Below the pieces are notes generated by a model. It was not told the DNA's origin. It did no database searches and saw only the letters and a list, made by a program, of their open reading frames with translations. 64,000 nt of DNA from Syntrophaceae bacterium UBA2188 (GTDB lineage: Bacteria; Desulfobacterota; BSN033; UBA1163), in assembly GCA_002327985.1 (NCBI GenBank), contig DCVM01000181.1, positions 24,528-88,527 of the forward strand, read 5' to 3'. Below are positions 9,591 to 58,420 of this stretch, piece after piece. A program made the translations under genes and the position numbers. Positions within the stretch are counted from its first letter, which is position 1. Every line of letters begins with the position of its first letter.

Positions 9591-9698
9591 CGAATAACGC
9601 TCCTATTTCTTCCCCTTGACAAAATGAAACCAAGGGCCTTCCTGCACCCTTGGGTTTTTAAACATAGCCCATCAAGAAACATTTTGCAAGTAAAAATT

Positions 9699-9749
9699 AC
9701 CCCCCACCTTATTCCTCCCCCACCAGCGGGAGGAGGAAAGGAGGGGGGC
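9699..9749. repeat. GC-rich C-run/G-run hairpin element (family copy b, degenerate), between acyl-CoA synthetase and secD
   Basis: ccccccaccttattcctccccc ... gggaggaggaaaggagggggg; imperfect inverted C/G arms; lacks the TTGA core. Confidence 0.35.
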
Positions 9750-9776
9750 AAATTTTAAAGCTGAAATAAAGGACGG

Positions 9777-11354
9777 TTACTTCACATCACTCCATTTCCC
9801 ATATTTTTCTCTTAAAATGCGATGGAGAATTTTTCCAGTGGGGGTCATGGGCATCTCTTCGTCCTTGATGAAATCCACTGTTTTGGGGATTTTGTATCCT
9901 GCAATCTTTCCCCTGCAATGGTCAATAAGCTCCTTTTCGGTCGCTGTCTTTCCCTGATGAAGGGTCACAATCGCCTTTACAGACTCCCCCCATTTTTCAT
10001 GCGGAATCCCGATCACAGCCACATATTTTACCGCAGGATGGGATCCCAAAAGATTCTCTACTTCTGATGGGAAGATATTCTCGCCACCGCTAATGATCAT
10101 ATTCGCTTTTCTATCCACCAAGACATAGTATCCATCTGGATCCCGGCAAGCCATATCCCCTGCTGAGAACCACTCTCCTTGAAAAACGGACTTCGTTTTT
10201 TCCGGATCCTTCCAATATTCCTTAAACACATGGGGAGTCCGCGAATAAAGTTCTCCCACCTCCCCATCCGGTACCTCTTTACCATGTTCATCTAAAATCT
10301 TGATTCGATCGGATCCCCAGATCTCTCTACCAATGGAGCCCAACTTCTTAAATTGTTCTTCGGGTCTGAGGAGGGTTACAAGCCCTGCCTCGGTTGAACC
10401 GTAGGCTTCCCAGAGCTCTGCATTTTTGAAATAATCCATGATGGCCATTTTAGTATCTTTCCGGGCGGGTGCAGAAGAGATCAGGAGTTGTCGCATCGAA
10501 CTTACATCATATTTCTTTTTAATTTCATCGGGTTGAGAAAGAATCATGATGTAATGGGTGGGGACAAGGGAAGTAAAGGTAATCTTCTCCTTTTGAATCG
10601 TTTTCAATAGATCCTCTGGATCGAAGCTGACCATGTTGTAGACAAAAACCCTTGCACTACAATAGGTATAGGTAAATGAATAATAGATTGAATTGATGTG
10701 GCACATTGGCATGACGAGCATGACGCAGTCATCCGGCCGGATGCCCGTATTCATTGCATTGAGAACATATTGGGCAAGATTGTTTTCATGAGTCCGGACA
10801 ACCCCTTTGGGCTTGCCGGTAGTCCCTGAAGTATACATAAGATTCCAGACATCATCTCCATCGACCATTACATCGGGTTCATCGGGTGAGGCTTCTGCAA
10901 TAATTTTTTCATAAGACTGGTAGCCCTCAGGGGTCGGATCATCTCCCCAATAAACATAATTTTCCGGCGGGATGGAAGATAGTTTATTACGAAAGGAATT
11001 AACCGTTGGAACAAAATCTTTTGAGACTAAAAAAGCTTTACATTCTGCATGGTTCACAACATATTCCATTTCAGGAGCTGCAAGACGAAACATAATTGGG
11101 ACGGTGATAAGTCCAGCTTTTGCAGAGGCCGCATAAATCTCCATCCATTCGATACAATTGTATGCCAGGATAGCAAACCGATCTCCTTTTTTTAGTCCCA
11201 TTTTTGTAAAGGCATTGGCTAACCGGCAGCTCCTGTCGTTCCATTCCTTGAAGGTCATCTTCCTGAACTTATCCCCTGCCCCTGGTTTATCAGGATATTG
11301 CGTTGCCATCATCTTAAGAACTGTTCCCGCTGTAATCCATTTACTAATCGTCAT
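9777..11354 (-). CDS. AMP-dependent acyl-CoA synthetase / fatty-acid--CoA ligase
   Basis: 525 aa; AMP-binding signature MYTSGTTGKPKGV; A10 Lys region PKTVDFIKDEEMPMTPTGKI. Confidence 0.75.
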   Translation of the reverse strand: MTISKWITAGTVLKMMATQYPDKPGAGDKFRKMTFKEWNDRSCRLANAFTKMGLKKGDRFAILAYNCIEWMEIYAASAKAGLITVPIMFRLAAPEMEYVVNHAECKAFLVSKDFVPTVNSFRNKLSSIPPENYVYWGDDPTPEGYQSYEKIIAEASPDEPDVMVDGDDVWNLMYTSGTTGKPKGVVRTHENNLAQYVLNAMNTGIRPDDCVMLVMPMCHINSIYYSFTYTYCSARVFVYNMVSFDPEDLLKTIQKEKITFTSLVPTHYIMILSQPDEIKKKYDVSSMRQLLISSAPARKDTKMAIMDYFKNAELWEAYGSTEAGLVTLLRPEEQFKKLGSIGREIWGSDRIKILDEHGKEVPDGEVGELYSRTPHVFKEYWKDPEKTKSVFQGEWFSAGDMACRDPDGYYVLVDRKANMIISGGENIFPSEVENLLGSHPAVKYVAVIGIPHEKWGESVKAIVTLHQGKTATEKELIDHCRGKIAGYKIPKTVDFIKDEEMPMTPTGKILHRILREKYGKWSDVK

Positions 11355-11490
11355 AAATCCACCCCTTTCTTAATCCCAATTCTTCTTCCTAAAGAAAAGA
11401 AAACAGGGATTAATAATTTCTTTTTGTGATTTTTTTTACATTCATTATCATTACGAAATAATTTTGTCAAGGAGAAGTTTTAAAAAAGAC

Positions 11491-11519
11491 TTGTTATTCT
11501 ATGGCTTTTATAGTATATA
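11491..11519 (+). promoter_or_regulatory. candidate sigma70-type promoter for the gcvH-hdr-flx cluster
   Basis: TTGTTA -17 nt- TATATA, about 37 nt upstream of the gcvH-like ATG; RBS AAAGGAGG at 11538-11545. Confidence 0.35.
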
Positions 11520-11555
11520 GGTAGGCATTTAAAAAAGAAAGGAGGATTGGAAAAA

Positions 11556-11975
11556 ATGGAAATCGAAGGATATAACTTTCCAGACGATTTATATTATCAC
11601 AAAGAGCATTTTTGGGCTAAAGTTTCGGGCAATATTGTGATTATGGGCACAACTGATTTCGCCCAGAAATTAGCAGGTCAAATCGTATATATTGAATTAC
11701 CATCTCCAGGTAAAAAGCTTGAACAGGGGAAACCTTGTGGCTCCTTGGAATCCGGTAAATGGGTAGGTAGGGTTTATGCCCCTGTCTCTGGAAAAGTGGA
11801 ATCCACCAACCAAGAACTTGAAGAGACTCCTGAATTAATTAATGAAAACCCTTATGAAAAAGGTTGGATATGTAAAATTAGTCCTTCCAATCTTCAAGAA
11901 GAGCTTAAGAATTTGATGCAGGGAGAAAGTCTGGCGGAATTTATAAAGTCTGAAATCGTTCGAGTGAAAAAGTAA
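11556..11975 (+). CDS. glycine-cleavage H-protein-like lipoyl carrier protein (LbpA-like)
   Basis: 139 aa from the ATG (ORF-track start 11547 is TTG placed 1 nt after the RBS); H-protein motif SLESGKWVGRVYAPVSGKV aligns to ESVKAAS-DVYAPVSG with the lipoyl-Lys conserved. Confidence 0.75.
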   Translation: MEIEGYNFPDDLYYHKEHFWAKVSGNIVIMGTTDFAQKLAGQIVYIELPSPGKKLEQGKPCGSLESGKWVGRVYAPVSGKVESTNQELEETPELINENPYEKGWICKISPSNLQEELKNLMQGESLAEFIKSEIVRVKK

Positions 11976-12044
11976 GAGCAAAAAATAATCCTTCATTGAA
12001 AAATGATGATGCCTATCTTATAAATAATTATACGCTCATCAATC

Positions 12045-12542
12045 ATGATTGATTCTAAGACATTTGATCCCAATTTTAAATTCCTCATCGCCTCGGAACC
12101 AGGCGGAGAGAATATCAACAAATGTTTTTCTTGCGGCACCTGTACGGCAGGATGCCCTGTGAGGGAAGTCACCGACCGTTATAACCCAAGAAGAATTATC
12201 CGAATGGCGATCCTGGGAATGAAAAAAGAAGTCCTTTCAAGTGACTTTATCTGGTTATGTTCCTCTTGCTATACCTGTTACGAAAGATGTCCTCAAAATG
12301 TCAAAATTCCTGAACTGATGAACGCCATTAAAAATATTGCGGTGAAAGAAGGATATCTTCCTTCATCCATCAAGAGTCAATTGGATCTCCTCGCCTCCTT
12401 TGGCCGCCTCTTAGAGGTGACGGACTTTGAAAATGACAAAAGGAAGGATTCAGGTCTTCCACTCTTTCAAAGGCAGACCGAAGATGTGAAGAAGATCTTA
12501 ATCAACCTGGGTCTCTATCGTGAAGAACAGGACAGAGGATAG
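12045..12542 (+). CDS. hdrC: heterodisulfide reductase subunit C-like (2x[4Fe-4S])
   Basis: CFSCGTCTAGCPV and CSSCYTCYERCPQ ferredoxin motifs; 165 aa; followed by hdrB. Confidence 0.8.
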   Translation: MIDSKTFDPNFKFLIASEPGGENINKCFSCGTCTAGCPVREVTDRYNPRRIIRMAILGMKKEVLSSDFIWLCSSCYTCYERCPQNVKIPELMNAIKNIAVKEGYLPSSIKSQLDLLASFGRLLEVTDFENDKRKDSGLPLFQRQTEDVKKILINLGLYREEQDRG

Positions 12543-13440
12543 CCCACAACACGTTGAATATACTCTTTTCCTTGGATGTACGGTTCCTGTCAGAGCCTTG
12601 AATTATGAGATATCGGCGAGGAGGGTAGCTGAAAAACTCGGCCTTCAACTCTCTGATGATCCAGATTTCAGTTGCTGCGGTTACCCCATCAAATCCGTCC
12701 ACCGCTATGGCTATCTTCTTATGGCAGCCCGCAATCTGGCCCTTGCTGAAGAAAAGGGGCTTCCACTCTGTACCCTTTGCAGCGCTTGTTGTGGTTCTCT
12801 CACTGAAGCCAACCATGAGATCAAGGAGAATGAAAAATTACGGAAACAGATCAACGAAGACCTCTTCGAGTGGGTGGGGTTGCACTATGAGGGAGGAGTT
12901 CGAGTCACTCATTTTATTCGAGTCCTAGATCAAGAAGTTGGGAAAAAAAGAATTTCAGAGCAGATCCGAACTGATCTCTCTCCCCTTCGTGTAGCTCCCC
13001 ATTATGGTTGTCACTATACCAAACCCTCCACCATTTACAACAAGACAGAAGATCCAGAGGATCCAAAAAGTTTGGATGAACTGATTAAAGTGACAGGAGC
13101 CCAATCCGTTCAATATGAGGATAAACTCCAGTGTTGCGGGGGGGGGGTGTTGGCTATTGACGAGCAGGTCGCTCTCGCCATGGCTCATCGAAAATTGGAT
13201 CATCTCAAATCCCAGCAGGCAGATGCCATGATCCTCATCTGTCCTTTCTGCAATGTCATGTATGAAGGGAATCAACGTAAAATTGAAAAGTCCTATCAAA
13301 CAGAATATAAAATGCCCATTCTCTATTATCCTCAACTTTTGGGCTTAGCCTTAGGATTTGAACCCAATGATCTGGGGATGAAAATGAACCGCGTGAAAGC
13401 GAATGAGTTGGTGAAGAAGATTAACAGGAGTGCGGATTGA
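12520..13440 (+). CDS. hdrB: heterodisulfide reductase subunit B-like (two CCG domains)
   Basis: CCGYPIK ... CTLCSACCGS and HYGCHYT ... CCGGGV ... CPFCN; 306 aa; GTG start overlapping hdrC. Confidence 0.8.
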   Translation: MKNRTEDSPQHVEYTLFLGCTVPVRALNYEISARRVAEKLGLQLSDDPDFSCCGYPIKSVHRYGYLLMAARNLALAEEKGLPLCTLCSACCGSLTEANHEIKENEKLRKQINEDLFEWVGLHYEGGVRVTHFIRVLDQEVGKKRISEQIRTDLSPLRVAPHYGCHYTKPSTIYNKTEDPEDPKSLDELIKVTGAQSVQYEDKLQCCGGGVLAIDEQVALAMAHRKLDHLKSQQADAMILICPFCNVMYEGNQRKIEKSYQTEYKMPILYYPQLLGLALGFEPNDLGMKMNRVKANELVKKINRSAD

Positions 13441-13441
13441 G

Positions 13442-16400
13442 ATGAGCCAACCACCCAAGGACCCAATTGGAGCGGTATTGGTTGTTGGTGCAGGAATTGG
13501 AGGCATCCAGGCTTCCTTAGACCTGGCGGAGTCGGGGTTTAAAGTCTATCTTTTGGAAAAGAATTTGAGTATTGGCGGGACCATGGCGCAGTTAGATAAG
13601 ACCTTCCCGACCAATGACTGCTCCATGTGTATTATGTCTCCTAAATTGGTGGATGCGGGAAGACACAGGAATATTCAGATCCTCACCAATGCCAAGGTAG
13701 AAAAAGTCGACGGGGTTCCTGGTGATTTTAAAGTTCAAATTCATAAGAAGGCTCGCTATGTCACGATTGAAGACTGCAAGGCATGCGGAGATTGTGTCAA
13801 GGTCTGCCCTATTAAAATTCCCAATGATTACGAACAAGGACTGGTCACCCGCGCCGCCATTTATCAGCTGTTTGCTCAGGCCATGCCGAGTGCTTACGGG
13901 ATTGATAAGAGAGGAATCCCTCCTTGCCGCGCCACCTGCCCTATTCATGTCAATGCTCAAGGGTATATCGCTCTCATTTCAGTCGGTAAGTTTGAAGAGG
14001 CCTTGGCACTGATCAGACAAAAAAATCCATTCCCGGGCATCACGGGCCGGATATGTACCCACCCCTGTGAATCGGTCTGCCGAAGAAAAGACGTCGGTAC
14101 GACTCGAAACCGAGTGGAACGGCCCGTGGCCATTGATGCCCTGAAACGATTCGTCTCGGACTTTGAGAAAGAAGATAAAACTGACCTGACTGTTCCTGAG
14201 GAAAATGGAAAGAAGGTTGCCATCGTGGGTGCAGGTCCTGCAGGCTTGCTGGCTGCCTACGACCTAAGAAAAATGGGCTATGGCGTCACCCTCTTTGAGG
14301 CCCTGCCTGTGCCTGGAGGAATGCTCGCGGTTGGAATTCCAGAATATCGTCTGCCACGGACTGTCCTCAATGAGGAGATCGATTACCTTCTTCGAATGGG
14401 GGTTGAGCTCAAGCTCAATACTCCGATCGGCCCCCATTTTCCCCTTCAAGACCTCAAAGCCAAAGGATATGAGGCCATCTTTATTGCAACGGGTGCCCAC
14501 CAAAGCAGGAAACTTGGACTCGAGGGAGAAGAGTCAAAAGGCATCCTCCATGCTGTCGACTTCCTAAGAAGGGTTGCACTGAGAGAACCGGTCGAGATAG
14601 GTGAAAAAGTAGTGGTGGTGGGAGGCGGGAATGCAGCCATCGATGCCGGCCGAACAGCCTTCCGCCTTAAGGCAAAAGAAGTCACCATCGCCTATCGCCG
14701 AACCCGAGCCGAGATGCCAGCTCAAGAAGAAGAAATCGAAGAGGCAGAGCATGAAGGAATCAAAATCGAATACCTGACTGCCCCAACCCGATTGTTGATC
14801 GAGGGGGGTCAAATAATTGGAATGGAATGCATCCGAATGGCATTGGGTGAAATCGATGAATCGGGTCGGCCTCGGCCAGTTCCCATTTCTGGATCAGAAT
14901 TTAAAATTGAAGCGGATACGATTATCCCAGCCATTAGTCAATCCTCCGACCTGTCTTTCCTCAATCAAAAAGATATTATGAAGACGACTCGGTGGGGGGG
15001 AATTGAAGTAGATCCCCTGACCCTTGAGACCAGCGTGAAAGGTATTTTCGCTGGTGGTGATGTGGTCACCGGTCCCCAGACTTATATCGATGCCATGGGG
15101 GCTGGAAGAAAGGCAGCCATTTCCATTGACCGATATCTGAGAGGAGCAGACCTGAGAGTAGGTCGAGAGGAAGAAGGTCCACAGAAAGACTATATCAAGA
15201 TTGATATCGACGGTGTGGAGTATCGAGAAAGAGCCTCGATGACCGCCATCCCGTTGAATGAAAGAAGAAATTTTAATGAGGTGAACCTCGGGCTGAGAGA
15301 AGAGGATGTGATTCGGGAGGCAGAGCGCTGTCTTCAATGTGGAGGTTGTTCAGAGTGTTTAGAGTGTATCAAAGCCTGTGAGGCAAAGGCCATCGACCAT
15401 GGGATGAAGGATGAACAGTTGGAAATTGAAGTCGGCTCAATCATCCTCTCCCCGGGATTTGATGAGTTCGAACCTTCTTTGAAAAGCGAATACGGCTATG
15501 GACGATTTCCCAACGTCGTTTCAAGCATTGAATTCGAGCGATTCCTTTCAGCCTCTGGACCCTTCAAAGGCCAGGTTCTGAGACCTTCGGATCAGAAACA
15601 CCCCAAAAGTGTGGCATGGATTCAATGTGTGGGATCGAGAGACCCCCATATTGGAAAAGGTTACTGTTCTTCGGTCTGCTGTATGTACGCAACCAAAGAG
15701 GCGGTCATTGCTAAAGAGCATGCCTCGGAAATTGAACCGACGATCTTCTTCATGGATATGAGGGCATATGGAAAGGATTTTGATAAGTACATTGAGAGAG
15801 CAAAAAAGGAATATGGTGTTCGCTATATCCGATCCCGAGTCTCTCATGTCAAAGAGGACCCAAAAACGAATAATCTGACCATCCATTATGAAACCGAAGA
15901 GGGAGAGATGGTTTCTGAGGAGTTTGACCTCGTTGTCCTCTCCGTCGGCCTTGAGCCAACAAGAAGTCATCAGGAGATCGCAAATATTTTTGATATTGAT
16001 CTTAATTCATACGGGTTTGCCGAAACCTCTATCTTCTCCCCTCTTCAAACGTCGAAACCCGGGATCTTTGTTAGCGGCGTCTTTTCCGGCCCGAAAGACG
16101 TTCCTGAAACGGTCGCTCAGGCGAGTGCAGTGGCTGCAGAAGCCTCCTCCCTTCTCGCTAAATCAAAGGGAACATTGGTCGTCGAGAAAGAATATGCTCC
16201 AGAAAAAAATGTGAACTATCAAGGTCCCCGCATTGGTGCTTTCATCTGTCACTGTGGGATCAATATTGGAGGGGTGGTCAATGTCCCAGAGGTCGTCGAA
16301 TATGCACGAACACTCCCTAATGTGGTCCATGTCGAAGGCAACCTCTACACTTGTTCTCAGGACACTCAGGATCAGATGAAAAAGATGATCGAAGAACATC

Positions 16401-17941
16401 AATTGAACCGGGTCGTGGTCGCTTCGTGCACACCTCGAACCCACGAACCCCTGTTCCAGGATACCATCCGTGAGGCAGGGCTTAACCGTTATCTTTTTGA
16501 TATGGCCAATATTCGCGATCAATGTTCATGGGTTCACATGACCCAACCCAAAGAGGCAACAGAAAAAGCAAAGGATCTGGTCAGAATGGCCATCGCCAAA
16601 GCAGCCCTCCTGGACCCTCTTCCCACCCAGACGGTTCAGATGAATCAAAAGGCCCTGGTCATTGGCGGAGGATTGGCGGGAATGACCGCCGCTAAGAAGA
16701 TTGCCCAAGCTGGCTATGAGGTCTATCTGGTTGAAAAAAGATCTGAATTAGGTGGAAAAGCGAGAACGATATACTACACCCTCGATGGCAATAATGTTCA
16801 ATCCCATTTAGAACATCTGATACGAGACGTAGAGAAAAATCCACAAATTCATCTCATGACAAAAACGACCATCGAAAAGATCGATGGATTTGTTGGAAAT
16901 TTCAAAACCAAAGTCCGGAATGGAAACGAAGTGAAAGAACTCGACCACGGAGTCATCATTGTCGCCACTGGGGGAGAGGAATATCGCCCCAAAGAATTCC
17001 TCTATGGCCAAGATTCCCACGTGATCACTCAGAAGGAGTTGGAGGAATGGATTGTCTTCCATCCTAATAAATTAAAGGATCTAAAAAACGTAGCCATGAT
17101 TCAATGTATCGGATCGAGAAATGATGACAGACCTTACTGTAGTCGAATCTGCTGCTCCGAGGCGATCAAAAATGCCTTAAAACTAAAATCCATGAACCCG
17201 AAGCTGAATATTTATATTCTCTATCGTGACATCCGAACCTATGGGTTCAAAGAAGACTATTATGAGAAGGCTCGAGAGGCCGGGATTCTCTTCATCCGTT
17301 ACGAACCAGAGAAGGAACCCCGGCTGGAAGCAGGAGCAGAAGGCCTGGGTGTCGTCGTGCACGAACCCATCCTCCACGATGATCTGCTGATCCAGACCGA
17401 TCTTCTCGTGCTGAGTCCAGGAATCGTCCCCCCCGTCGAAAATGAAACCCTTTCAAAGATGTTGAAAGTTCCCCTCAATCAGGACGGCTTCTTCCTGGAA
17501 GCTCATATGAAACTCAGGCCGGTGGACTTTGCAACAGAGGGAATCTTCCTGGCCGGGCTCGCTCACAGTCCGAAATCGATTGAAGAGAGCATCTCGCAAG
17601 CCAATGCGGCCGTTGCCCGAGCTCTCACTTATCTTTCCAAAACAGAACTTGAGACGATCGGCATCACCTCCGAGGTAGATGAGAGAAAATGTATTGGCTG
17701 TGGTCTCTGCGAAAGTGTCTGCCCTTATCAAGCTATTGAAATCCTGACGAAAAGGACCATCGTAGGAGAAAAACAGGTGGCGCAAATTAACAAAGCTCTT
17801 TGCAAGGGATGCGGCGCTTGCACCGCTTCTTGCCGCTCGGGGTCTATCGATTTGAAAGGATTCACCAACGCAGAGGTGGTTGCCCAGATCACCGAACTGG
17901 CCATAGGATCAATCGGAGAGTCGATGACAGGACAACCATGA
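13442..17941 (+). CDS. hdrL: HdrL-type giant HdrA-like flavoprotein: tandem HdrA modules with an inserted GltD/NfnB-like FAD/NAD(P) domain
   Basis: 1499 aa from ATG 13442 (RBS AACAGGAG). Module 1: GAGIGGIQASLDLAESGFKVYLLEK, DCSMCIM, WIQCVGSRD, CCMYATKEA. Insert: CRATCPIHVNAQGYI, ICTHPCESVCRR, VAIVGAGPAGLLAAYDL. Module 2: LVIGGGLAGMTAAKKIAQAG, MIQCIGSRND, ICCSEAIKNA. C-terminal 2x[4Fe-4S]. Confidence 0.8.
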   Translation: MSQPPKDPIGAVLVVGAGIGGIQASLDLAESGFKVYLLEKNLSIGGTMAQLDKTFPTNDCSMCIMSPKLVDAGRHRNIQILTNAKVEKVDGVPGDFKVQIHKKARYVTIEDCKACGDCVKVCPIKIPNDYEQGLVTRAAIYQLFAQAMPSAYGIDKRGIPPCRATCPIHVNAQGYIALISVGKFEEALALIRQKNPFPGITGRICTHPCESVCRRKDVGTTRNRVERPVAIDALKRFVSDFEKEDKTDLTVPEENGKKVAIVGAGPAGLLAAYDLRKMGYGVTLFEALPVPGGMLAVGIPEYRLPRTVLNEEIDYLLRMGVELKLNTPIGPHFPLQDLKAKGYEAIFIATGAHQSRKLGLEGEESKGILHAVDFLRRVALREPVEIGEKVVVVGGGNAAIDAGRTAFRLKAKEVTIAYRRTRAEMPAQEEEIEEAEHEGIKIEYLTAPTRLLIEGGQIIGMECIRMALGEIDESGRPRPVPISGSEFKIEADTIIPAISQSSDLSFLNQKDIMKTTRWGGIEVDPLTLETSVKGIFAGGDVVTGPQTYIDAMGAGRKAAISIDRYLRGADLRVGREEEGPQKDYIKIDIDGVEYRERASMTAIPLNERRNFNEVNLGLREEDVIREAERCLQCGGCSECLECIKACEAKAIDHGMKDEQLEIEVGSIILSPGFDEFEPSLKSEYGYGRFPNVVSSIEFERFLSASGPFKGQVLRPSDQKHPKSVAWIQCVGSRDPHIGKGYCSSVCCMYATKEAVIAKEHASEIEPTIFFMDMRAYGKDFDKYIERAKKEYGVRYIRSRVSHVKEDPKTNNLTIHYETEEGEMVSEEFDLVVLSVGLEPTRSHQEIANIFDIDLNSYGFAETSIFSPLQTSKPGIFVSGVFSGPKDVPETVAQASAVAAEASSLLAKSKGTLVVEKEYAPEKNVNYQGPRIGAFICHCGINIGGVVNVPEVVEYARTLPNVVHVEGNLYTCSQDTQDQMKKMIEEHQLNRVVVASCTPRTHEPLFQDTIREAGLNRYLFDMANIRDQCSWVHMTQPKEATEKAKDLVRMAIAKAALLDPLPTQTVQMNQKALVIGGGLAGMTAAKKIAQAGYEVYLVEKRSELGGKARTIYYTLDGNNVQSHLEHLIRDVEKNPQIHLMTKTTIEKIDGFVGNFKTKVRNGNEVKELDHGVIIVATGGEEYRPKEFLYGQDSHVITQKELEEWIVFHPNKLKDLKNVAMIQCIGSRNDDRPYCSRICCSEAIKNALKLKSMNPKLNIYILYRDIRTYGFKEDYYEKAREAGILFIRYEPEKEPRLEAGAEGLGVVVHEPILHDDLLIQTDLLVLSPGIVPPVENETLSKMLKVPLNQDGFFLEAHMKLRPVDFATEGIFLAGLAHSPKSIEESISQANAAVARALTYLSKTELETIGITSEVDERKCIGCGLCESVCPYQAIEILTKRTIVGEKQVAQINKALCKGCGACTASCRSGSIDLKGFTNAEVVAQITELAIGSIGESMTGQP

Positions 17942-18426
17942 CCGATCAATGGGAACCCAAGATATTAGCCTTCCTTTGTAACTGGTGTTCTTATGCCGGG
18001 GCAGACCTCGCGGGAACAGCCCGGATTCAGTATCCACCGAACATTCGGGTCATCCGAGTGCCCTGCTCAGGGAGGATCAATCCTCTCTTTATCCTCAAGG
18101 CCCTTCAGAGCGGGATCGACGGAGTGCTGGTTTCTGGCTGTCATCCAGGAGACTGTCATTATCTCAGCGGAAACTATATAGGAAGGAGAAAGTCAGCAAC
18201 CCTGAAACGCTTTCTCGAATACCTCGGCTTCGAGGAGGGCCGGGTTCAGTTCTCCTGGGTCTCTGCCGCAGAAGGAGGTAAGTTTTCCCAGGTCGTGGGA
18301 GAGGTCGTGCAGGATATTAAAAAATTGGGACCCGCCCAGAGATTCGTCAAAAAAGAGGCTCAAGGGTCCCAGGGGTCAAGGGTTCAAGTGAACAGTATAA
18401 AAAAGCTGGGACCCTCGAATCCTTGA
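17938..18426 (+). CDS. mvhD: MvhD/FlxD-like [2Fe-2S] electron-transfer protein
   Basis: ATGA overlap with the hdrL stop; MTDQWEPKILAFLCNWCSYAGADLAG ... RVPCSGR ... GCHPGDCHY classical MvhD motifs. ORF-track start 17800 is rejected because it overlaps hdrL by 141 nt. Confidence 0.8.
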   Translation: MTDQWEPKILAFLCNWCSYAGADLAGTARIQYPPNIRVIRVPCSGRINPLFILKALQSGIDGVLVSGCHPGDCHYLSGNYIGRRKSATLKRFLEYLGFEEGRVQFSWVSAAEGGKFSQVVGEVVQDIKKLGPAQRFVKKEAQGSQGSRVQVNSIKKLGPSNP

Positions 18427-18465: not shown

Positions 18466-19428
18466 ATGGAAGAGAGATCGAAGGCAATTCAAGACAGAAT
18501 TAGAGAAAAAGCCAGAGAGCTTCTATTAAACAAAACGGTGGATCTCATCATCGGTTTTGGTGAAGGTTCCTTTCCCCTTCGAACCACACCCAGATTCATT
18601 CGAGATCCTGAAAAAACGGACCGTTTGATCTGGAACTCTTTTTGCGAAAACAACCTGGCCACTTACCTTCATAAATTCAACAAGTTTAAGGTGGGGATCG
18701 TGGTGAAAGGATGTGATGCCCGTTCTGTCATTGCACTTTCTCTCGAAAAAAGGTTTAAACCTGATCAACTGTTTTTAATGGGAGTCCCTTGCCAGAGGAT
18801 GGTGGATCGAAGAAAGGTGAAGCGGGCGGTAAAAGGAGAAATCCTTCGGGCTTTTGAGCAAGGAGACCAGATCGTTGTGGAGGGAGAAGAGTTTAAAACC
18901 ATTTTGAAAAGGGATGACTTTTTTTATCCCTCCTGCCAGGTTTGCATTCATCGAAATCCTATTCAGGCGGACGTGTTAGTCGGAGATCCTGTAGAAGAAT
19001 CTCCTCTTATAGAAATACATCCCGAGATCCAAGAATTTGCAAAGAAATCCGCGGAAGAACGGTGGAAGTATTTTGAGAAAGAGTCCAGCCGTTGTATCCG
19101 TTGCTACGCTTGTCGAGAAGCCTGTCCCATGTGCTATTGCGCGGAATGTTTTGTGGACAGTTCTAACCCAAAGTGGATTGAAAAGAGCTTATCTCCTTCA
19201 GACCTTGAGTTCTATCACATCGTAAGGGCCTATCATCAAACAGGGAGGTGCACGGGTTGCGGTGCCTGTGAAAGAGCCTGTCCTATGGAGATTCGTCTCA
19301 CTTACCTCACGCAGAAATTGAATAGGGACGTAAAAGAACTTTTCAACTATGAAACAGGAATCGATACCAAGACGCTCCCTCCCCTGTCGACTTATGACAT
19401 GGAGGATAAACAGGATTTCATCAAATGA
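18466..19428 (+). CDS. flxC: FlxC-like Fe-S protein (sulfhydrogenase/F420-hydrogenase beta-like, 2x[4Fe-4S])
   Basis: CIRCYACREACPMCYC and CTGCGACERACPM. Start is uncertain: TTG at 18442 or ATG at 18466. Confidence 0.6.
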   Translation: MEERSKAIQDRIREKARELLLNKTVDLIIGFGEGSFPLRTTPRFIRDPEKTDRLIWNSFCENNLATYLHKFNKFKVGIVVKGCDARSVIALSLEKRFKPDQLFLMGVPCQRMVDRRKVKRAVKGEILRAFEQGDQIVVEGEEFKTILKRDDFFYPSCQVCIHRNPIQADVLVGDPVEESPLIEIHPEIQEFAKKSAEERWKYFEKESSRCIRCYACREACPMCYCAECFVDSSNPKWIEKSLSPSDLEFYHIVRAYHQTGRCTGCGACERACPMEIRLTYLTQKLNRDVKELFNYETGIDTKTLPPLSTYDMEDKQDFIK

Positions 19429-20486
19429 CATTGAAGCTGGACAAAAAAGATTTGAAGGCTTTTTTGGAAACCCTGATGGATGAATACGATCTCTTTGCGC
19501 CCGTGCAATTGGCCGAGGGAGTTTCCATATATAAAAAGATTGACCGCCCCGATGATGTGGACCTCTCAACCTCTAACCCTCAAAAACCTGCGAAGGAGGT
19601 ATTTTTCCCCCAATCTGAGACCATGTTTCGGTATGAAAAAGCCGGGAAACAACAACAGATGACTTCCACAGAAGGGGTAGAAAAAAAGAGGGTGATCCTG
19701 GGCGCCAGACCCTGCGATATCCAGGCGGTCTCCATCTTGGATGACGTCTTTTTAGGGAAAGAGTACAAGGATGTTTATTATGGGAATAAAAGAAATGGGA
19801 CAACCCTCATCGGCTTAGCCTGTAATCATCCCCTCTCCACTTGCTTCTGTCCCTCTGCGGGGGGAGGTCCTTTCCTTCGAAAGGGTTCGGACATTTTCCT
19901 CATCGATTTGGGCGAAACATTTATCGTTGAGCTTCTGACTGAAAAAGGAATGACTTTTCAAAAGAACAAATTCTTTAAAGAAGCGAATACAAAAGAGATC
20001 AGTTTGGCCCAAGAGATTGAGGAAAAAGCATCCAAAAAAGCTGATGCTTCCGTTCCGATTGAGGGAATTGATAGAAGATCGGACCTAATGATGGAGAGCC
20101 CATTCTGGGACCGGATGCATGAGAAATGTATAGGCTGTGGAGTGTGCACCTTTCTTTGCCCCACATGCCATTGTTTTGATATTGTCGATGAGGCCTTGAC
20201 GAACAAGGGGCAACGGGTGAGAAACTGGGATTCCTGCCTATTCCCTTTATATTCCCAGGAGACTTCTGGCCATAATCCACGACCCACAGGCCGTGAACGA
20301 ACTCGACAAAGATTAATGCACAAGTTTAATTATTTCCCGAAAAACTTTGGGCGGGTCGCTTGTGTGGGTTGCGGTCGATGTATCCTTTACTGCCCGGTTA
20401 ATTTTGATATCCGCCAGGCAATCAACTTGACGTCTGCTAAAGGCATAAGAAAAGTGAAGGATCAGGTGGACTTAACGAGGCGATGA
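19425..20486 (+). CDS. flxB: FlxB-like Fe-S protein (HydB/AsrA-like, 2x[4Fe-4S])
   Basis: CIGCGVCTFLCPTCHCFD and CVGCGRCILYCPV; 353 aa; ATGA overlaps with both neighbours. Confidence 0.6.
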   Translation: MTLKLDKKDLKAFLETLMDEYDLFAPVQLAEGVSIYKKIDRPDDVDLSTSNPQKPAKEVFFPQSETMFRYEKAGKQQQMTSTEGVEKKRVILGARPCDIQAVSILDDVFLGKEYKDVYYGNKRNGTTLIGLACNHPLSTCFCPSAGGGPFLRKGSDIFLIDLGETFIVELLTEKGMTFQKNKFFKEANTKEISLAQEIEEKASKKADASVPIEGIDRRSDLMMESPFWDRMHEKCIGCGVCTFLCPTCHCFDIVDEALTNKGQRVRNWDSCLFPLYSQETSGHNPRPTGRERTRQRLMHKFNYFPKNFGRVACVGCGRCILYCPVNFDIRQAINLTSAKGIRKVKDQVDLTRR

Positions 20487-21322
20487 AGAATCCATATTTC
20501 CCCATCCCCATGAAGGTTAAACAGGCCTATGTCGAAACCGTCGACCGAATGCTTCGGACGATTGAGTTGAGTTTCCTGAATGAAGAAGACGAAAGGGCTT
20601 TCCATTTCACCCCCGGTCAATTCTGCGAACTCTCTATCCTGGGGAAAGGCGAGGCATCTTTTGGGATTGCCTCCTCTCCGACAGAAAACAACTCTTTGAA
20701 ATTTACAATTAATAAGGCAGGGGTGGTAACCACCGCCCTTCATCACATCGAGGAAGGGACAGAGGTCGGTGTGCGAGGCCCCCTGGGGAACGGATATCCC
20801 ATCCCCCTTTTTGAAGGAAAAAATGTATTAGTGATTGGAGGAGGGTTTGCGTTCACCACTTTGCGATCCTTGATCACCTATTTCCTACACCCACAAAATC
20901 GATCCAAAGTGAATGAGATCACTGTCATTTATGGAGCACGGATGCCGGGCCTCCTCCTCTACAAGGCAGAATTGTTAGAGTGGGAGAAGAGAAGCGACAT
21001 CAAATTGGTGGTGACGGTTGATTGGGGAGATAAAGACTGGAAGGGGAAGGTTGGACTGGTCCCAAATGTATTGGAAGAGGTGGCACCCTCTTCAGAAAAT
21101 AGTTATGCCGTCATCTGTGGCCCTCCGATTATGATTAAATTCACCTTCCCAAAATTGATGGCCCTTCGATTCCCCAATGAACGCATTTATACCTCTCTGG
21201 AGAAAAGGATGAAATGTGGTATTGGGAAATGTGGCCGATGTAACATTGGTCACCTCTACGTATGTAAGGATGGCCCTGTCTTCAGTTACGCCGAGTTGGA
21301 AAAATTACCAAAGGACTATTGA
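20483..21322 (+). CDS. flxA: FlxA-like NAD(P)H:FAD oxidoreductase (PyrK/AsrB/HydG-like) with C-terminal [2Fe-2S]
   Basis: FNR-like FAD/NAD fold (FHFTPGQF, GPLGNGYP, VLVIGGGFAFTTLRSL); C-terminal CGIGKCGRCNIG. Confidence 0.65.
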   Translation: MKNPYFPIPMKVKQAYVETVDRMLRTIELSFLNEEDERAFHFTPGQFCELSILGKGEASFGIASSPTENNSLKFTINKAGVVTTALHHIEEGTEVGVRGPLGNGYPIPLFEGKNVLVIGGGFAFTTLRSLITYFLHPQNRSKVNEITVIYGARMPGLLLYKAELLEWEKRSDIKLVVTVDWGDKDWKGKVGLVPNVLEEVAPSSENSYAVICGPPIMIKFTFPKLMALRFPNERIYTSLEKRMKCGIGKCGRCNIGHLYVCKDGPVFSYAELEKLPKDY

Positions 21323-21445: not shown

Positions 21446-24025
21446 ATGGATTATACTAAAGATCTGATCCAAATTGTAGGTGAAAAAAATGTTAAGACCG
21501 ATGAAATCGAACGACTCTGTTACTCCAGGGATCTCTCGGTCCACGAGGCCGTTCCGGATGTCATTGTCTTCGCCAATACCACAGAAGAAGTTTCAAAAAT
21601 TATGTCTTTGGCCCATCATGGAAAAATTCCTGTGACCCCAAGAGGATCGGGGACAAGTGCTGTAGGGGGTGCTTTAGCCGCCAAAGGAGGCATTCTGCTT
21701 GATTTAAGCAGGATGAACCGTATTCTCGAGATAGACAAAGAGAATGGATATGCGGTGGTTGAACCTGGCGTCATATGCAACCAGCTTAATGCAGCCATTG
21801 CCCCAACCCATTTTTTTCCTCCCGATCCTGGAAGTGCGAATCTCGCCTCACTGGGAGGAATGGTCTCAACCAATGCCAGCGGAAATCGGGCTCTGAAGTA
21901 TGGGACAACGAAGAATTATGTCTTGGGGCTGGAAGTGGTACTGGCCGATGCTCGAATCATTAACACAGGGTCGGTCTTGGGCAAGACTTCCTCCGGATAC
22001 GACCTGACCCAGCTCTTCACCCAGGCCGAGGGGACGCTGGGGATTATCACAAAGGTCATTCTAAGAATTCTCCCCGTTCCCGAATATGTTGCTTTTGCAG
22101 AGGCCCGATTTCCCTCTACCCTGGATGCCGGAAAGGCCGTTCGGGAGATCTTGACCTCGGGGATCGCCCTCTCTTCCTGTGAGATTTTGGATAAAGTGAC
22201 GATCGATGTGGTAAATAAAGCGATGGGACTCAACATCCCCGATCAAGTGGGATGTCTCCTCTTCATTGAAATCGATGGGAATAAAAAAGCTGTTCAGGAA
22301 AACATAGAAAAAATTAATAAAATTTGTAAAACCAATAATGGGATTGAAAATAGATGGGAGGATGACCCTGCGAAACGTCTTAAGATGTGGGCCGCCCGTC
22401 AAGGGATTGTTGCCTCTTTGTCGAAAGTCAAGAGAGGATCAAGGATGCAATCCATTATGGATGACCCGGGAATACCTATCACCAAAATTCCGGAAGCCAT
22501 TATGGAAATCAAGAAAATCTCGGAGAAACATCATCTCCCCATCAATACTTTTGGCCATATCGGTGATGGGAATATTCATCCCATCATCATCTCGGACCCC
22601 AGAAACAAGGAGCAATGGAATACCATCAAAGAAGTAGCCAAAGACTTAATTGACCTCACGATCCGGCTCCGGGGAACGCTCACCGCAGAGCATGGAACGG
22701 GAATGGCCAAATCGCCTTATATTAAGAAGGAGCTCGGGGAAACCCTCAAAGTCATGAAGGAGATCAAAAAAGCCCTTGACCCCAACAATATACTCAATCC
22801 GGGAAAGATGGGATTCGATGACTCCATTCAAGACATTTATGAGAATTTTGCCTTTTTACCCCTTGTTCAAAGGACTAACGAGATTCAATCCTTCGGGGAG
22901 GCACTGGATAATGAGATCATGGCCTGTATCATGTGCGGATTCTGTCGAGCCGGGTGTCCCACTTATGGGGAAACTTTCCTCGAATCCATCAATGCGCGCG
23001 GAAGAGTAATATTGGCCTATCACCTCCTCACCGGGAGACTGAAACCCTCGAAAGAACTGGCGGAAAGATTTTATAAGTGCACCACATGCTTGAACTGCAA
23101 TGCCGTCTGCCCCGCAGGTGTCCAGGTTTCCGATATTGTCCAGGCTGCCCGCCTACGGCTGGTGGAGGCAGGATACCTTCCCCCCATCCACGGAACGCTC
23201 ATGCGATCCATTGAAGAAAAAGGAAATCCCTTCGGGGAAGCCACAGAAAAAAGGCAGGATATCTATCCCACAGAGTATAAGCCTAAAGAAAAAGCAACCA
23301 CCCTTCTTTTTTTCGGGTGTGTGGCTTCCTATCAAGATATCAATGTCATTCCAAGCACCTTGAAGATCATGGATAAGGCGAAGATTGACTATACGACGTT
23401 GGGGACGGAGGAGCAATGCTGTGGATATATCTCTTATCTGGTCGGGGATGAAAAAGAATTTGAGAGATGTATCAAGAATAATAAAAATCATTTTGAACGG
23501 ATGGGTTTCAAAGAAATGGTTACCACCTGCGCGGGGTGCTATCGAACCTTTAAAGATCTTTACCCAAAACATCATGGGTTTCTCAGCATTCAAGTTTATC
23601 ATACGGTAGAATATTTGGAAAAACTCATCACGGACGGCAAGCTCATTTTCAAGAATGGGGCTAAAATAAAAGTGGCTTATCACGATCCCTGTGATATCGG
23701 GCGGCATATGAATATCTATGATCCACCCCGAAATGTCATCAGGGCGATTCCGTCGTTAGAATTGATTGAATTTCCTCACAACAGGAACCTTGCCAAATGC
23801 TGTGGCGGGGGGGGGGGATTGAAGGCCTTCGATACTGACATGAGTTTAGAAATATCTTACAAGCGCGTTCAGCAGGTCTCCGGTATAGGAGTTGACCTAA
23901 TTGTTTCCGCCTGCCCCTCCTGTAAATCTAACTTACAGGTGGCTGCAGCCAGACTTCGAAAAGAGAAAAAAGGCCGCATCAAGGTGATGGACATTACGGA
24001 ATTAGTGGCGGAGGCCCTCGCCTAA
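21446..24025 (+). CDS. fused FAD-linked 2-hydroxyacid (D-lactate/glycolate) dehydrogenase with Fe-S/CCG oxidoreductase domain (GlcD+GlcF/GlpC/HdrD-like)
   Basis: 859 aa. N-terminal FAD_binding_4 and FAD-oxidase C domain (GlcD-like: RGSGTSAVGGALA, HIGDGNIHP). C-terminal CIMCGFCRAGCPTY, CTTCLNCNAVCPAG, then two CCG domains (CCGYISY; CCGGGGG ... ACPSC). Confidence 0.75.
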   Translation: MDYTKDLIQIVGEKNVKTDEIERLCYSRDLSVHEAVPDVIVFANTTEEVSKIMSLAHHGKIPVTPRGSGTSAVGGALAAKGGILLDLSRMNRILEIDKENGYAVVEPGVICNQLNAAIAPTHFFPPDPGSANLASLGGMVSTNASGNRALKYGTTKNYVLGLEVVLADARIINTGSVLGKTSSGYDLTQLFTQAEGTLGIITKVILRILPVPEYVAFAEARFPSTLDAGKAVREILTSGIALSSCEILDKVTIDVVNKAMGLNIPDQVGCLLFIEIDGNKKAVQENIEKINKICKTNNGIENRWEDDPAKRLKMWAARQGIVASLSKVKRGSRMQSIMDDPGIPITKIPEAIMEIKKISEKHHLPINTFGHIGDGNIHPIIISDPRNKEQWNTIKEVAKDLIDLTIRLRGTLTAEHGTGMAKSPYIKKELGETLKVMKEIKKALDPNNILNPGKMGFDDSIQDIYENFAFLPLVQRTNEIQSFGEALDNEIMACIMCGFCRAGCPTYGETFLESINARGRVILAYHLLTGRLKPSKELAERFYKCTTCLNCNAVCPAGVQVSDIVQAARLRLVEAGYLPPIHGTLMRSIEEKGNPFGEATEKRQDIYPTEYKPKEKATTLLFFGCVASYQDINVIPSTLKIMDKAKIDYTTLGTEEQCCGYISYLVGDEKEFERCIKNNKNHFERMGFKEMVTTCAGCYRTFKDLYPKHHGFLSIQVYHTVEYLEKLITDGKLIFKNGAKIKVAYHDPCDIGRHMNIYDPPRNVIRAIPSLELIEFPHNRNLAKCCGGGGGLKAFDTDMSLEISYKRVQQVSGIGVDLIVSACPSCKSNLQVAAARLRKEKKGRIKVMDITELVAEALA

Positions 24026-58300: not shown

Positions 58301-58420
58301 CTGACACCGACCGTTGGCGATCCCAATACCATGATCCCTGAATCAAAGGCTTTCATGGCCAACGTCAGTAAACTGACTAAACAACCAGCCCAACCAGCCA
58401 AAAAAACAACAAAAAGTTAA
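55376..58420 (+). CDS. fdnG: formate dehydrogenase catalytic subunit, selenocysteine-containing, Tat-exported
   Basis: Tat signal RRTFLKVSGATAAG. The two track ORFs 55376-55954 and 56003-58420 are in the same frame and are joined by TGA 55952-55954. The junction reads EHQARI-U-HSATVAALAESFGRGAMTN, the canonical Sec site of molybdopterin formate dehydrogenases; 1014 aa total. Confidence 0.9.

Follow-up and report, generated by a model that had tools for sequence, protein, structure and literature searches.

The stretch of DNA described here, called the window below, is 64,000 nt long and comes from Syntrophaceae bacterium UBA2188 (contig DCVM01000181.1, positions 24,528-88,527, forward strand). 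The gene of interest is hdrL, which codes for a large protein of the HdrA (heterodisulfide reductase) type and is found in the gene order hdrC-hdrB-hdrL-mvhD(flxD)-flxC-flxB-flxA (Table 1). Its open reading frame (ORF) starts with an ATG 13 nt downstream of an AGGAG, and its TGA stop codon overlaps the ATG of mvhD (ATGA). A first-pass annotation, made from the letters alone, had read the ORF as one uninterrupted polypeptide of 1,499 residues, and this was borne out. The identical protein was called by public gene callers on 14 independent metagenome contigs (JGI, ENA, Logan), so hdrL is not an assembly or frameshift artefact. Near-full-length homologues (n = 93, 64-91% identity) are 1465-1515 residues long, and the ORF is intact in 67 GTDB species loci; this and all GTDB figures below refer to the best 80 loci among the matches listed, 67 of them intact. 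A frameshift or a two-gene origin of the window hdrL was therefore rejected. The motifs quoted in the same annotation were all found where it had placed them: VVGAGIGG (14-21), PPCRATCPIHVNAQGY (160-175), CTHPCESVC (205-213), VGAGPAGL (262-269), QCVGSRD (728-734), CSSVCCMYA (742-750), QCIGSRN (1221-1227) and CSRICCSEA (1233-1241).

The homology of HdrL to HdrA amounts to 1036 bits with the NCBIfam profile NF040770, spread over four stretches. A phmmer search of solved structures gave Methanothermococcus HdrA (5ODC_A, E = 1.1e-197), and again the match was split into four pieces. HdrL 18-157 corresponds to 5ODC_A 152-291, the start of the flavin adenine dinucleotide (FAD) domain and the first half of the inserted ferredoxin domain, and HdrL 636-852 to 293-510, the second half of the inserted ferredoxin domain with the FAD domain. 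HdrL 928-1083 corresponds to 3-158, the N-terminal Fe-S domain (195 bits), and HdrL 1339-1483 to 506-646, the C-terminal ferredoxin domain. How these pieces are shared out can be seen in a three-way MAFFT alignment of both HdrL modules with methanogen HdrA (alignment A1). Module 1 (1-157 and 636-927) has a FAD domain, the NDCSMC pair C60/C63 and the sole inserted ferredoxin domain, and it has neither an N-terminal domain nor a C-terminal ferredoxin domain. Module 2 (928-1499) contributes the one N-terminal Fe-S domain of the chain as well as its one C-terminal ferredoxin domain; it lacks the inserted ferredoxin domain, seen as a 62-column gap, and the Cys194/Cys197 pair, with YYTLDGNNVQ in place of FPTNDCSxC. 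Both modules retain the FAD site, the HA4-type CxGSR...C...CC motif and the equivalents of K409/E356 at the FAD N5. The two HdrA-type units of the first-pass annotation are thus present as two FAD/HA4 modules, but they are not complete, because the accessory domains are split between them; nor does each unit have its ferredoxin domains, the inserted one belonging to module 1 only and the C-terminal one to module 2 only. The whole chain is predicted to hold three FAD sites and about nine [4Fe-4S] sites.

Judged from its sequence, HdrL is a covalent, asymmetric pseudo-dimer of two complementary HdrA modules and not a pair of complete units. In the Mvh-Hdr structure, as summarised in PMC9012536, the cluster in the N-terminal domain of an HdrA protomer is served by Cys197 from its partner, and the Cys194/Cys197 pair of methanogen HdrA completes this cluster, or relays to it, across the dimer interface. 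The same complementation is found inside HdrL, with the N-terminal domain in module 2 and C60/C63 in module 1, and the two would presumably lie close together in the fold. Each accessory domain of HdrA occurs once per HdrL chain, unlike in the symmetric 5ODC homodimer, whose protomers each have the full set of N-domain, TrxR, inserted ferredoxin and C-terminal ferredoxin domains. All of the 67 diverse sequences compared (44-89% identity; alignment A3), among them natural tandem HdrAs without the GltD-like part, keep the complementary cysteine pattern unchanged, and the cysteines in the first part of module 1 belong to this invariant set. A Dehalococcoidales metagenome-assembled genome (locus L078, 7986-12413) also argues for the pseudo-dimer. 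Here HdrL is divided over two neighbouring genes, the first for module 1 plus the cassette and the second for module 2, and the break falls exactly at the module boundary with a ribosome-binding site, a TAG stop and an ATG ('...MSKEE* MARARIGAFICHCG', spacer AAGGAGGAATAG-ATG). In this natural fission form the second gene starts exactly at the N-terminal Fe-S domain of module 2. Finally, an AlphaFold2 model of the chain with the cassette excised, built with a 53-sequence alignment, reached a predicted local distance difference test (pLDDT) score of 78.2 and a predicted template modelling (TM) score of 0.80, as compared to a pLDDT of 36.6 from the single sequence, which suggests that the modules have a defined mutual arrangement. 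The modules are only about 29% identical to each other (BLASTP), and each is 44-46% identical to methanogen HdrA (alignment A1), which points to a fusion of two distinct HdrA lineages. A recent internal duplication of HdrA was rejected on the same figures. Split tandem HdrA pairs similar to the one in L078 were also observed in loci L080 and L035.

A GltD/StnC/NfnB-like cassette is spliced in between HdrA residues 291 and 293, where it separates the motifs C112-C122 and C636-C646. It had been placed after the first N-terminal ferredoxin; in fact it sits inside the inserted ferredoxin domain of module 1. That the middle segment is GltD/NfnB-like was confirmed by the domain scan (Pfam Fer4_20 at 160-245 and Pyr_redox_2 at 257-555; PRK12771 with 568.7 bits against a cutoff of 516) and by matches in the PDB, StnC, NfnB and GltD among them. 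The best solved relatives, 9BOV_A (1.7e-135), 9N5U_A and StnC (8OH5_C), share its permuted order and score above NfnB, which matched with 1e-104 over HdrL 161-568 (4YLF_B; also 5JCA_L). Compared with NfnB the cassette is circularly permuted. HdrL 161-568 corresponds to NfnB 46-461, and HdrL 603-633 (NFNEV...EAERCLQC) to NfnB 12-42 (4YLF_B), so that the RCLxC motif, which in the linear NfnB stands N-terminally before PC...CP, follows the FAD and NADPH domains in HdrL. The cut lies within the first cluster motif (RCLQC / PCxxxCP), and C162, C166, C630 and C633 are all invariant. Because it falls in one cluster motif, the two ends of the cassette would lie close together in the NfnB fold, at a distance of only a few residues, as suits the insertion of a domain.

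The cassette is predicted to resemble NfnB in its GltD fold, with sites for FAD and NADPH and with two [4Fe-4S] clusters. The motifs GGGNAA and YRRTRAEMPA, present in 88 of the 93 homologues, predict NADPH as its nucleotide. Lys235 (ALKRFV) takes the place of the FAD-proximal cluster ligand, where NfnB has Glu (LERFV) and StnC K170, and LKRF or LKRY is found in all 93 full-length homologues. StnC is the non-bifurcating NADPH entry module of Sporomusa ovata StnABC, and its FAD-proximal cluster is ligated by Lys170 as opposed to Glu in the bifurcating NfnB (8OH5; PMC10482914). Since Lys235 is as in StnC and conserved in every homologue, the cassette looks like a non-bifurcating NADPH port, grafted onto the cluster chain on the ferredoxin side. 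The likeness to StnC, 9BOV_A and 9N5U_A covers the GltD fold, the FAD, the NADPH site and the two [4Fe-4S] clusters, and StnC and the cassette further share the order with PPC...CP first and EAxRCLxC last. The hosts are different, NuoG/Fdh-like for the StnC type and HdrA for HdrL, and HdrL is without an equivalent of StnC Cys114 (Ala172). From NfnB (4YLF, 5JCA) the cassette differs in its permuted order and in having Lys instead of Glu.

Some relatives have lost part of this port. HdrL variants of about 1,330 residues (74-76% identity; P0098, P0105, P0112, and L090 at 8001-12002) lack the NAD(P)H-binding Rossmann subdomain, which corresponds to residues 352-481 and 492-509 of the window protein, and retain the FAD and Fe-S parts of the cassette. 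They are found in the same hdrCB-hdrL-mvhD-flxCBA operon, with nuoF-like and fdhA/nuoG-like genes upstream.

Table 1. Features of hdrL and of the neighbouring genes in the window; residue numbers are those of the protein in question, and cofactor sites are predictions.
Feature	Position	Strand	Size or residues	Sites and characteristics	Evidence
hdrL	13442..17941 (stop codon included)	+	1,499 aa	intact ORF	
HdrA module 1, first part	13442..13912	+	1-157	FAD Rossmann GxGxxG 16-21; C60/C63 pair (= HdrA Cys194/Cys197); inserted ferredoxin motif C112, C115, C118, C122	phmmer, alignment A1
GltD/StnC/NfnB-like NADPH:FAD cassette	13913..15346	+	158-635	two [4Fe-4S] (C162, C166 with C630, C633; C205, C209, C213 with K235); FAD GAGPAG 263-268; NADPH GGGNAA 394-399 and YRRTRAEMPA 418-427	Pfam, PRK12771, PDB matches
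HdrA module 1, second part	15347..16222	+	636-927	second inserted-ferredoxin motif C636, C639, C642, C646; rest of FAD domain 1; HA4-type cluster C729, C742, C746, C747; K752 (= K409)	phmmer, alignment A1
N-terminal-type Fe-S domain of module 2	16223..16621	+	928-1060	C936, C938, C971, C996, C1028	
HdrA module 2, FAD domain	16622..17656	+	1061-1405	GGGLAG 1075-1080; HA4-type C1222, C1233, C1237, C1238; K1243	alignment A1
C-terminal 2x[4Fe-4S] ferredoxin domain	17657..17938	+	1406-1499	C1417-C1427, C1454-C1464	Pfam Fer4/Fer4_7 at 1411-1467
gcvH-type lipoyl-protein gene	11556..11975	+		69 nt upstream of hdrC; ESGK lipoyl-Lys motif	canonical NCBIfam gcvH cutoffs passed
hdrC	12045..12542	+	165 aa	two CxxCxxCxxxC	Pfam Fer4_8; TIGR03290 CoB_CoM_SS_C 7e-34, below cutoff
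hdrB	12520..13440	+	306 aa	CCG at 52, 90, 205	Pfam CCG x2; TIGR03288 5e-85, below cutoff
mvhD/flxD	17938..18426	+	162 aa	Cys68	Pfam FlpD 2e-53; VhuD/HdrA2 C-terminal matches
flxC-like Fe-S protein	18466..19428	+	320 aa		Pfam Fer4, FrhB_FdhB_C
flxB-like	19425..20486	+	353 aa	sulfhydrogenase-beta/AsrA-like	Pfam Fer4_22; ShyB/HydB/AsrA matches
flxA-like FAD/NAD(P)H/[2Fe-2S] protein	20483..21322	+	279 aa	PyrK/NfnA/AsrB fold class	Pfam FAD_binding_6, NAD_binding_1, DHODB_Fe-S_bind
Dld-II-type D-lactate (2-hydroxyacid) dehydrogenase, GlcD::HdrD fusion	21446..24025	+	859 aa	GlcD-like FAD domain; HdrD-like 2x[4Fe-4S] and two CCG	Pfam FAD_binding_4, FAD-oxidase_C, Fer4_8, CCG

The genes around hdrL are closely packed. 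hdrC overlaps hdrB, hdrB is 1 nt from hdrL, mvhD is 39 nt from flxC, flxC overlaps flxB, flxB overlaps flxA, and flxA is 123 nt from the gene of the GlcD::HdrD fusion. A promoter and terminator scan of the operon gave counts no higher than in shuffled sequence, so the boundaries of the operon rest on the intergenic distances. The Pfam and NCBIfam profiles back the assignment of each of the FlxABCD genes, all adjoining hdr genes, and the flxC-like gene co-occurs with flxB and flxA in 11 GTDB loci. The domain set of the 859-residue fusion matches that described for Dld-II (PMC4481167). In an Aerophobetes relative (L091, 14431-18633) the genes directly after flxA are a lutC (LUD)-like gene, larA for lactate racemase, and split glcD-like and hdrD-like genes. 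The Dld-II domain set, together with these larA and lutC-like genes at the same place, suggests that the HdrL-Flx operon serves lactate metabolism. Elsewhere in the window, at 56003-58420 (+), there is an 805-residue ORF of the molybdopterin oxidoreductase family, whose Pfam Molybdopterin match begins only at profile position 99 and for which no Fe4S4 domain was reported.

The name HdrL was given in 2009 to a large 'heterodisulfide reductase/glutamate synthase fusion' followed by mvhD (Strittmatter, PMC2702500), and its use in the first-pass annotation is appropriate. The window protein has two HdrA-type FAD domains with CxGSR...C...CC motifs and, in the same chain, a region with an NAD(P)H site like the small subunit of glutamate synthase, and a gene of the FlpD family, mvhD, comes directly downstream. 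At least 80 species have a full-length relative. Represented among the best 80 loci are Desulfobacterota, Bacillota, Chloroflexota, Acidobacteriota, Planctomycetota, Spirochaetota, Thermotogota and Armatimonadota, together with several phyla of archaea. In the intact loci mvhD adjoins hdrL in 57 of 67, hdrCB is present in 15 and flxCBA in 11. Five loci have both, in the order hdrL-mvhD-flxC-hdrC-hdrB-flxB-flxA (Smithella, Syntrophales), and the seven-gene core order of the window recurs in six organisms (L087-L092) with 64-80% HdrL identity. It had also been noted that the gene order is the inverse of flxABCD-hdrABC. As compared to the published name this holds, but it carries little weight, since it is one of many permutations among HdrL loci.

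The window HdrL and MvhD are all-cysteine proteins, with a TGC-type Cys at residue 63 of HdrL and Cys68 in MvhD. Nineteen GTDB loci, mostly Desulfobacterales, have a TGA at the codon aligned with C63 (NDC[A/S]M-TGA-I[I/V]SPK; L019, L023, L029, L031-L034, L036, L039, L041, L042, L047, L048, L060, L067, L070 and L080-L082), and in 16 loci mvhD has a TGA at the position of Cys68. These orthologues are probably selenocysteine forms. In the alignment C63 corresponds to residue 197 of methanogen HdrA, which is Sec197 in the 2026 structure of M. maripaludis HdrA, where a Cys-Sec redox relay between the FAD and the N-domain cluster is proposed (PMC13518236). The first-pass annotation had pointed to the N-terminal Cys cluster of HdrA as the place to compare selenocysteine with cysteine. 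This was the wrong place, as the probable selenocysteine positions are the C63 equivalent of module 1 and Cys68 of MvhD; a selenocysteine inside the N-terminal Cys-cluster domain was rejected, and the site sits in the partner module that serves this domain. Selenocysteine was reported for HdrL1 and HdrL3 only and does not strictly define HdrL (Strittmatter 2009, PMC2702500); the window protein, with Cys63, is without this trait.

In some Desulfobacterales metV (DUF5981) and metF (methylenetetrahydrofolate reductase) come after the selenocysteine-type hdrL and mvhD, for example at L034 8136-14433, an arrangement that resembles the MetFV-HdrABC-MvhD of acetogens. Further on, such loci have a histidine kinase, a sigma-54 regulator and GcvH-related proteins without the lipoyl lysine.

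We consider it likely, with a probability of about 0.65, that hdrL codes for the flavin and Fe-S core of a soluble HdrBC-HdrL-MvhD(FlxD)-FlxCBA complex of the bifurcating or confurcating kind. The first-pass annotation had already suggested a flavin-based machine of this kind together with HdrBC and FlxABCD, in agreement with the bifurcation or confurcation proposed for HdrABC/HdrL and Flx-Hdr (PMC5947623, PMC4759654, bioRxiv 10.1101/563387), and it also fits that both modules retain K409/E356 at the FAD N5. The complex would couple NADH at FlxA, a low-potential pool and a dithiol/disulfide pair at HdrB, and the low-potential pool could be ferredoxin and/or NADPH, the latter through the built-in non-bifurcating port. 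There would be a single low-potential branch, leading from FAD over the N-domain cluster with C60/C63 to the inserted ferredoxin clusters, and from there extended by the clusters and the FAD of the cassette to the NADP(H) site. In Mvh-Hdr, electrons pass from MvhD to the C-terminal ferredoxin domain of HdrA (summarised in PMC9012536). The corresponding domain of HdrL would be the only entry for MvhD/FlxD and would through it take electrons from, or give them to, FlxCBA. The HA4-type cluster or clusters would lead to HdrC and on to HdrB, where the dithiol/disulfide is turned over; both HA4-type clusters could contact HdrC, and DsrC, or some other carrier, may be the protein with the disulfide. 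Through the adjoining Dld-II-type enzyme the system probably has a link to D-lactate oxidation in this operon.

Several points weigh against this assignment. Neither purified protein nor a solved structure exists for any HdrL or tandem HdrA, and a Foldseek search of the PDB with the AlphaFold2 model returned single HdrA chains only, with query-normalised TM-scores of at most 0.49. The model is without cassette and cofactors, and its confidence is low in the C60/C63 loop as well as in the inserted ferredoxin domain. The scores of HdrB and HdrC do not reach the NCBIfam equivalog cutoffs, as is expected for homologues from non-methanogens, and no dsrC was found in the window. The NADPH port seems to be dispensable in some lineages, because the sister variants that lost the NAD(P)H subdomain kept the operon. 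The wiring suggested above is extrapolated from methanogen HdrA, and either of the two module FADs may be the one that bifurcates.

An unlikely alternative is that HdrL is a linear NAD(P)H:protein-disulfide reductase, which takes electrons from NADPH or NADH through its Fe-S chains to HdrBC with neither bifurcation nor energy coupling. Bifurcation by any HdrL is itself a proposal, the HdrA-like sHdrA and QmoA/B are thought to be non-bifurcating, and the cassette is itself of the non-bifurcating type. A linear enzyme is nevertheless hard to reconcile with the presence of K409/E356 in both FAD domains, residues that are used to tell bifurcating from non-bifurcating HdrA (PMC12054007), or with the methanogen-type N-domain cluster, Cys pair and inserted ferredoxin domain, which are retained and invariant. 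Many orthologues also have a probable selenocysteine at position 197, as in the bifurcating methanogen enzyme.

Slightly less probable is an arrangement with two bifurcation sites, where the FAD of the cassette is a second bifurcating flavin as in NfnAB, with FlxA as its high-potential partner, and the two bifurcations are joined through their low-potential Fe-S chains. Such a scheme was proposed by Chadwick for the HdrA-NfnB fusions of anaerobic methanotrophic archaea (ANME-1; PMC9012536), and it would account for the strong homology of the cassette to NfnB and for the Pfam domain set of FlxA, which is that of the NfnA/PyrK fold class. The StnC-type structures are still closer to the cassette than NfnB is, StnC is non-bifurcating (PMC10482914), and Lys235 replaces the Glu of NfnB. 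The equivalent of NfnB R201 is conserved (R303), but this Arg is kept in StnC too and so does not discriminate; moreover, the usual partner of FlxA is FlxB. A third possibility, that the long ORF is a frameshifted or mis-assembled fusion of adjacent hdrA, gltD and hdrA genes, can refer to the separate genes in L078 and to frameshift-like breaks in a few GTDB loci (L073, L067, L071), but is practically excluded by the same product in 14 contigs from three sources, by the full-length homologues and intact GTDB loci, and by the cassette interrupting a ferredoxin domain that needs both halves, so that it cannot be a gene of its own.

The gcvH-type gene upstream of hdrC is of uncertain membership in the hdr operon. 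No gcvT or gcvP was found in the window. L088 and L089 also have gcvH upstream of hdrC, and L089 is the only relative with a gene for an LplA-type lipoate-protein ligase between the two. In L087 gcvH is found beside an HdrD-like/NarI-like pair, in L073 it has hdrB on one side and the Dld-II gene on the other, and in an Aminicenantes locus mvhD-hdrL comes after it; all in all it adjoins hdrCB or HdrD-like genes in the window, L087-L089, L073 and L017. We also surveyed the gcvH neighbourhood in 80 metagenome loci (L093-L172, GcvH 78-93% identical). Here the divergent gene of the AMP-binding (acyl-CoA-synthetase) family, at 9777-11354 (-) in the window, pairs with gcvH in 39 of 43 loci, and hdrC/B follows gcvH in 33 of 59. 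In about 20 loci the genes that come after gcvH code for a molybdopterin oxidoreductase of the Psr-like type, a 4Fe-4S protein, NrfD and a ferredoxin (for example L124 6660-11459), which makes it less likely that gcvH belongs obligately to the hdr operon. A link across phyla by way of GcvH-like ORFs near the HdrL loci of Desulfobacterales and Bathyarchaeia was discounted, because these are without the lipoyl lysine and have regulators between them and hdrL.

It is conceivable, by analogy, that lipoylated GcvH is a dithiol/disulfide carrier for CCG-domain enzymes in anaerobes without DsrC, although we regard this as a long shot. Lipoyl-GcvH would then shuttle electrons between the HdrD-like CCG domain of Dld-II and HdrB, like LbpA in the sHdr system. 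The idea is attractive as a candidate for the thiol carrier of syntrophs without DsrC, and some support comes from the position of gcvH beside hdrCB and HdrD-like genes, the ligase gene in L089 and the absence of gcvT and gcvP nearby. The points against it are that the AMP-ligase/gcvH pair is the truly conserved unit, that the Psr-like operon takes the place after gcvH in about 20 loci, and that GcvH scores as canonical. The potential of lipoamide is about -290 mV, a poor fit for a high-potential acceptor. Apart from the sHdr system, our literature searches turned up no connection of GcvH or lipoate with HdrB in anaerobes. If the idea were true, lipoyl-GcvH would be the long-sought 'bacterial heterodisulfide'. 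With sHdr-LbpA (PMC11094781, PMC10332631) the locus shares only the neighbouring gcvH, a lipoylatable GcvH-type protein (ESGK) beside hdrC/hdrB, and the relative L089 in addition the lipoate-protein ligase gene. No DsrE, TusA, rhodanese sulfurtransferase, dedicated lipoate ligase or hdrC1B1/C2B2 set was seen in the window operon, and sHdr uses the small sHdrA where the window has HdrL.

HdrL-type proteins, found in many anaerobic phyla and abundant in the proteomes of sulfate reducers, rank among the largest single-chain flavin and Fe-S electron hubs. The HdrL-type clusters were detected in proteomes under sulfate reduction in S. fumaroxidans (PMC5947623) and D. reducens (PMC4759654). HdrL would fix the HdrA dimer in one asymmetric form and wire an NADPH port to the branch that normally ends at ferredoxin. 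With the dimer fixed and the port hard-wired, it is a natural test case for the gating of bifurcation in HdrA and for the coupling of the low-potential branch to pyridine nucleotides. The family itself is already known, and the window HdrL is an all-cysteine, Flx-linked addition to this named and widespread family. What our analysis adds is the residue-level mapping, the circular permutation, the StnC-like Lys235, the NADPH-less and split variants, and the correspondence to Sec197. The classification is unchanged by this, but the complementarity of the modules, the permuted cassette with Lys235, the natural variants and Sec197 turn hdrL into a set of testable hypotheses.

The methanogen enzymes, MvhAGD-HdrABC and Hdr-Vhu-Fwd (5ODC; PMC13518236), have all the HdrA domains and cluster cysteines that are found once or twice in HdrL; K409/E356 are common to both, and the Sec197 site coincides with the probable selenocysteine site of the orthologues of HdrL. 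In methanogens two complete HdrAs form a homodimer, whereas HdrL is one chain with two incomplete, complementary modules. HdrL further adds the NADPH cassette, has Flx and not a hydrogenase as donor module, and its substrate is not CoM-S-S-CoB.

Among archaea the closest kin are the fused HdrA3/4 and the HdrA9-11 with an inserted NfnB of ANME (PMC9012536) and the type II and type III HdrA (PMC12054007). Both the insertion of NfnB in the inserted ferredoxin domain and the idea of a fused heterodimer have been described for ANME (PMC9012536); papers of 2022 and 2025 describe the two features in archaea. In the tandem and fused HdrAs of ANME, and in the HdrA of the Moorella MetFV-Hdr, Cys197 and the N-terminal domain are lost in a complementary manner, and a heterodimer inside a single chain was proposed for the fused forms (Chadwick 2022, PMC9012536). 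The fused HdrA3/4 of ANME shows the same complementarity as HdrL, with the difference that the module with the N-terminal domain comes first in HdrA3/4 and second in HdrL. Archaeal HdrA has since been classified as type II and type III, including 'A9-TRX-C' (PMC12054007). For type III a GxGxxG motif of the NAD type is reported (PMC12054007), as compared to the NADPH-type GGGNAA and YRR of HdrL, which moreover is bacterial and linked to Flx.

Desulfovibrio vulgaris has FlxABCD-HdrABC (Ramos 2015, cited in PMC4759654 and bioRxiv 10.1101/563387), which, as these two sources present it, is made up of the same seven functions, with NADH, ferredoxin and DsrC as the proposed partners. The likeness is by profiles. 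In the window the HdrL with three predicted flavins replaces HdrA, the gene order is reversed, and there is a second pyridine-nucleotide site.

The nearest described systems are HdrL1-3 of Desulfobacterium autotrophicum HRM2 (PMC2702500), Sfum_0824 of Syntrophobacter fumaroxidans (PMC5947623) and Dred_1327 of Desulfotomaculum reducens (PMC4759654), which are the same large HdrA/glutamate-synthase fusion. The HRM2 proteins are likened to the window HdrL by description. All of them have the NAD(P)H site, with mvhD after hdrL and with hdrBC and Fe-S or Flx-type genes in the cluster. The Desulfobacteraceae orthologues that we found probably carry selenocysteine, as reported for HdrL1 and HdrL3, whereas the window HdrL is all-cysteine. 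The gene contexts also differ, with dsrABC, fdh or metVF in Desulfobacterales, and hdrCB-hdrL-flxDCBA with gcvH and Dld-II in the window.

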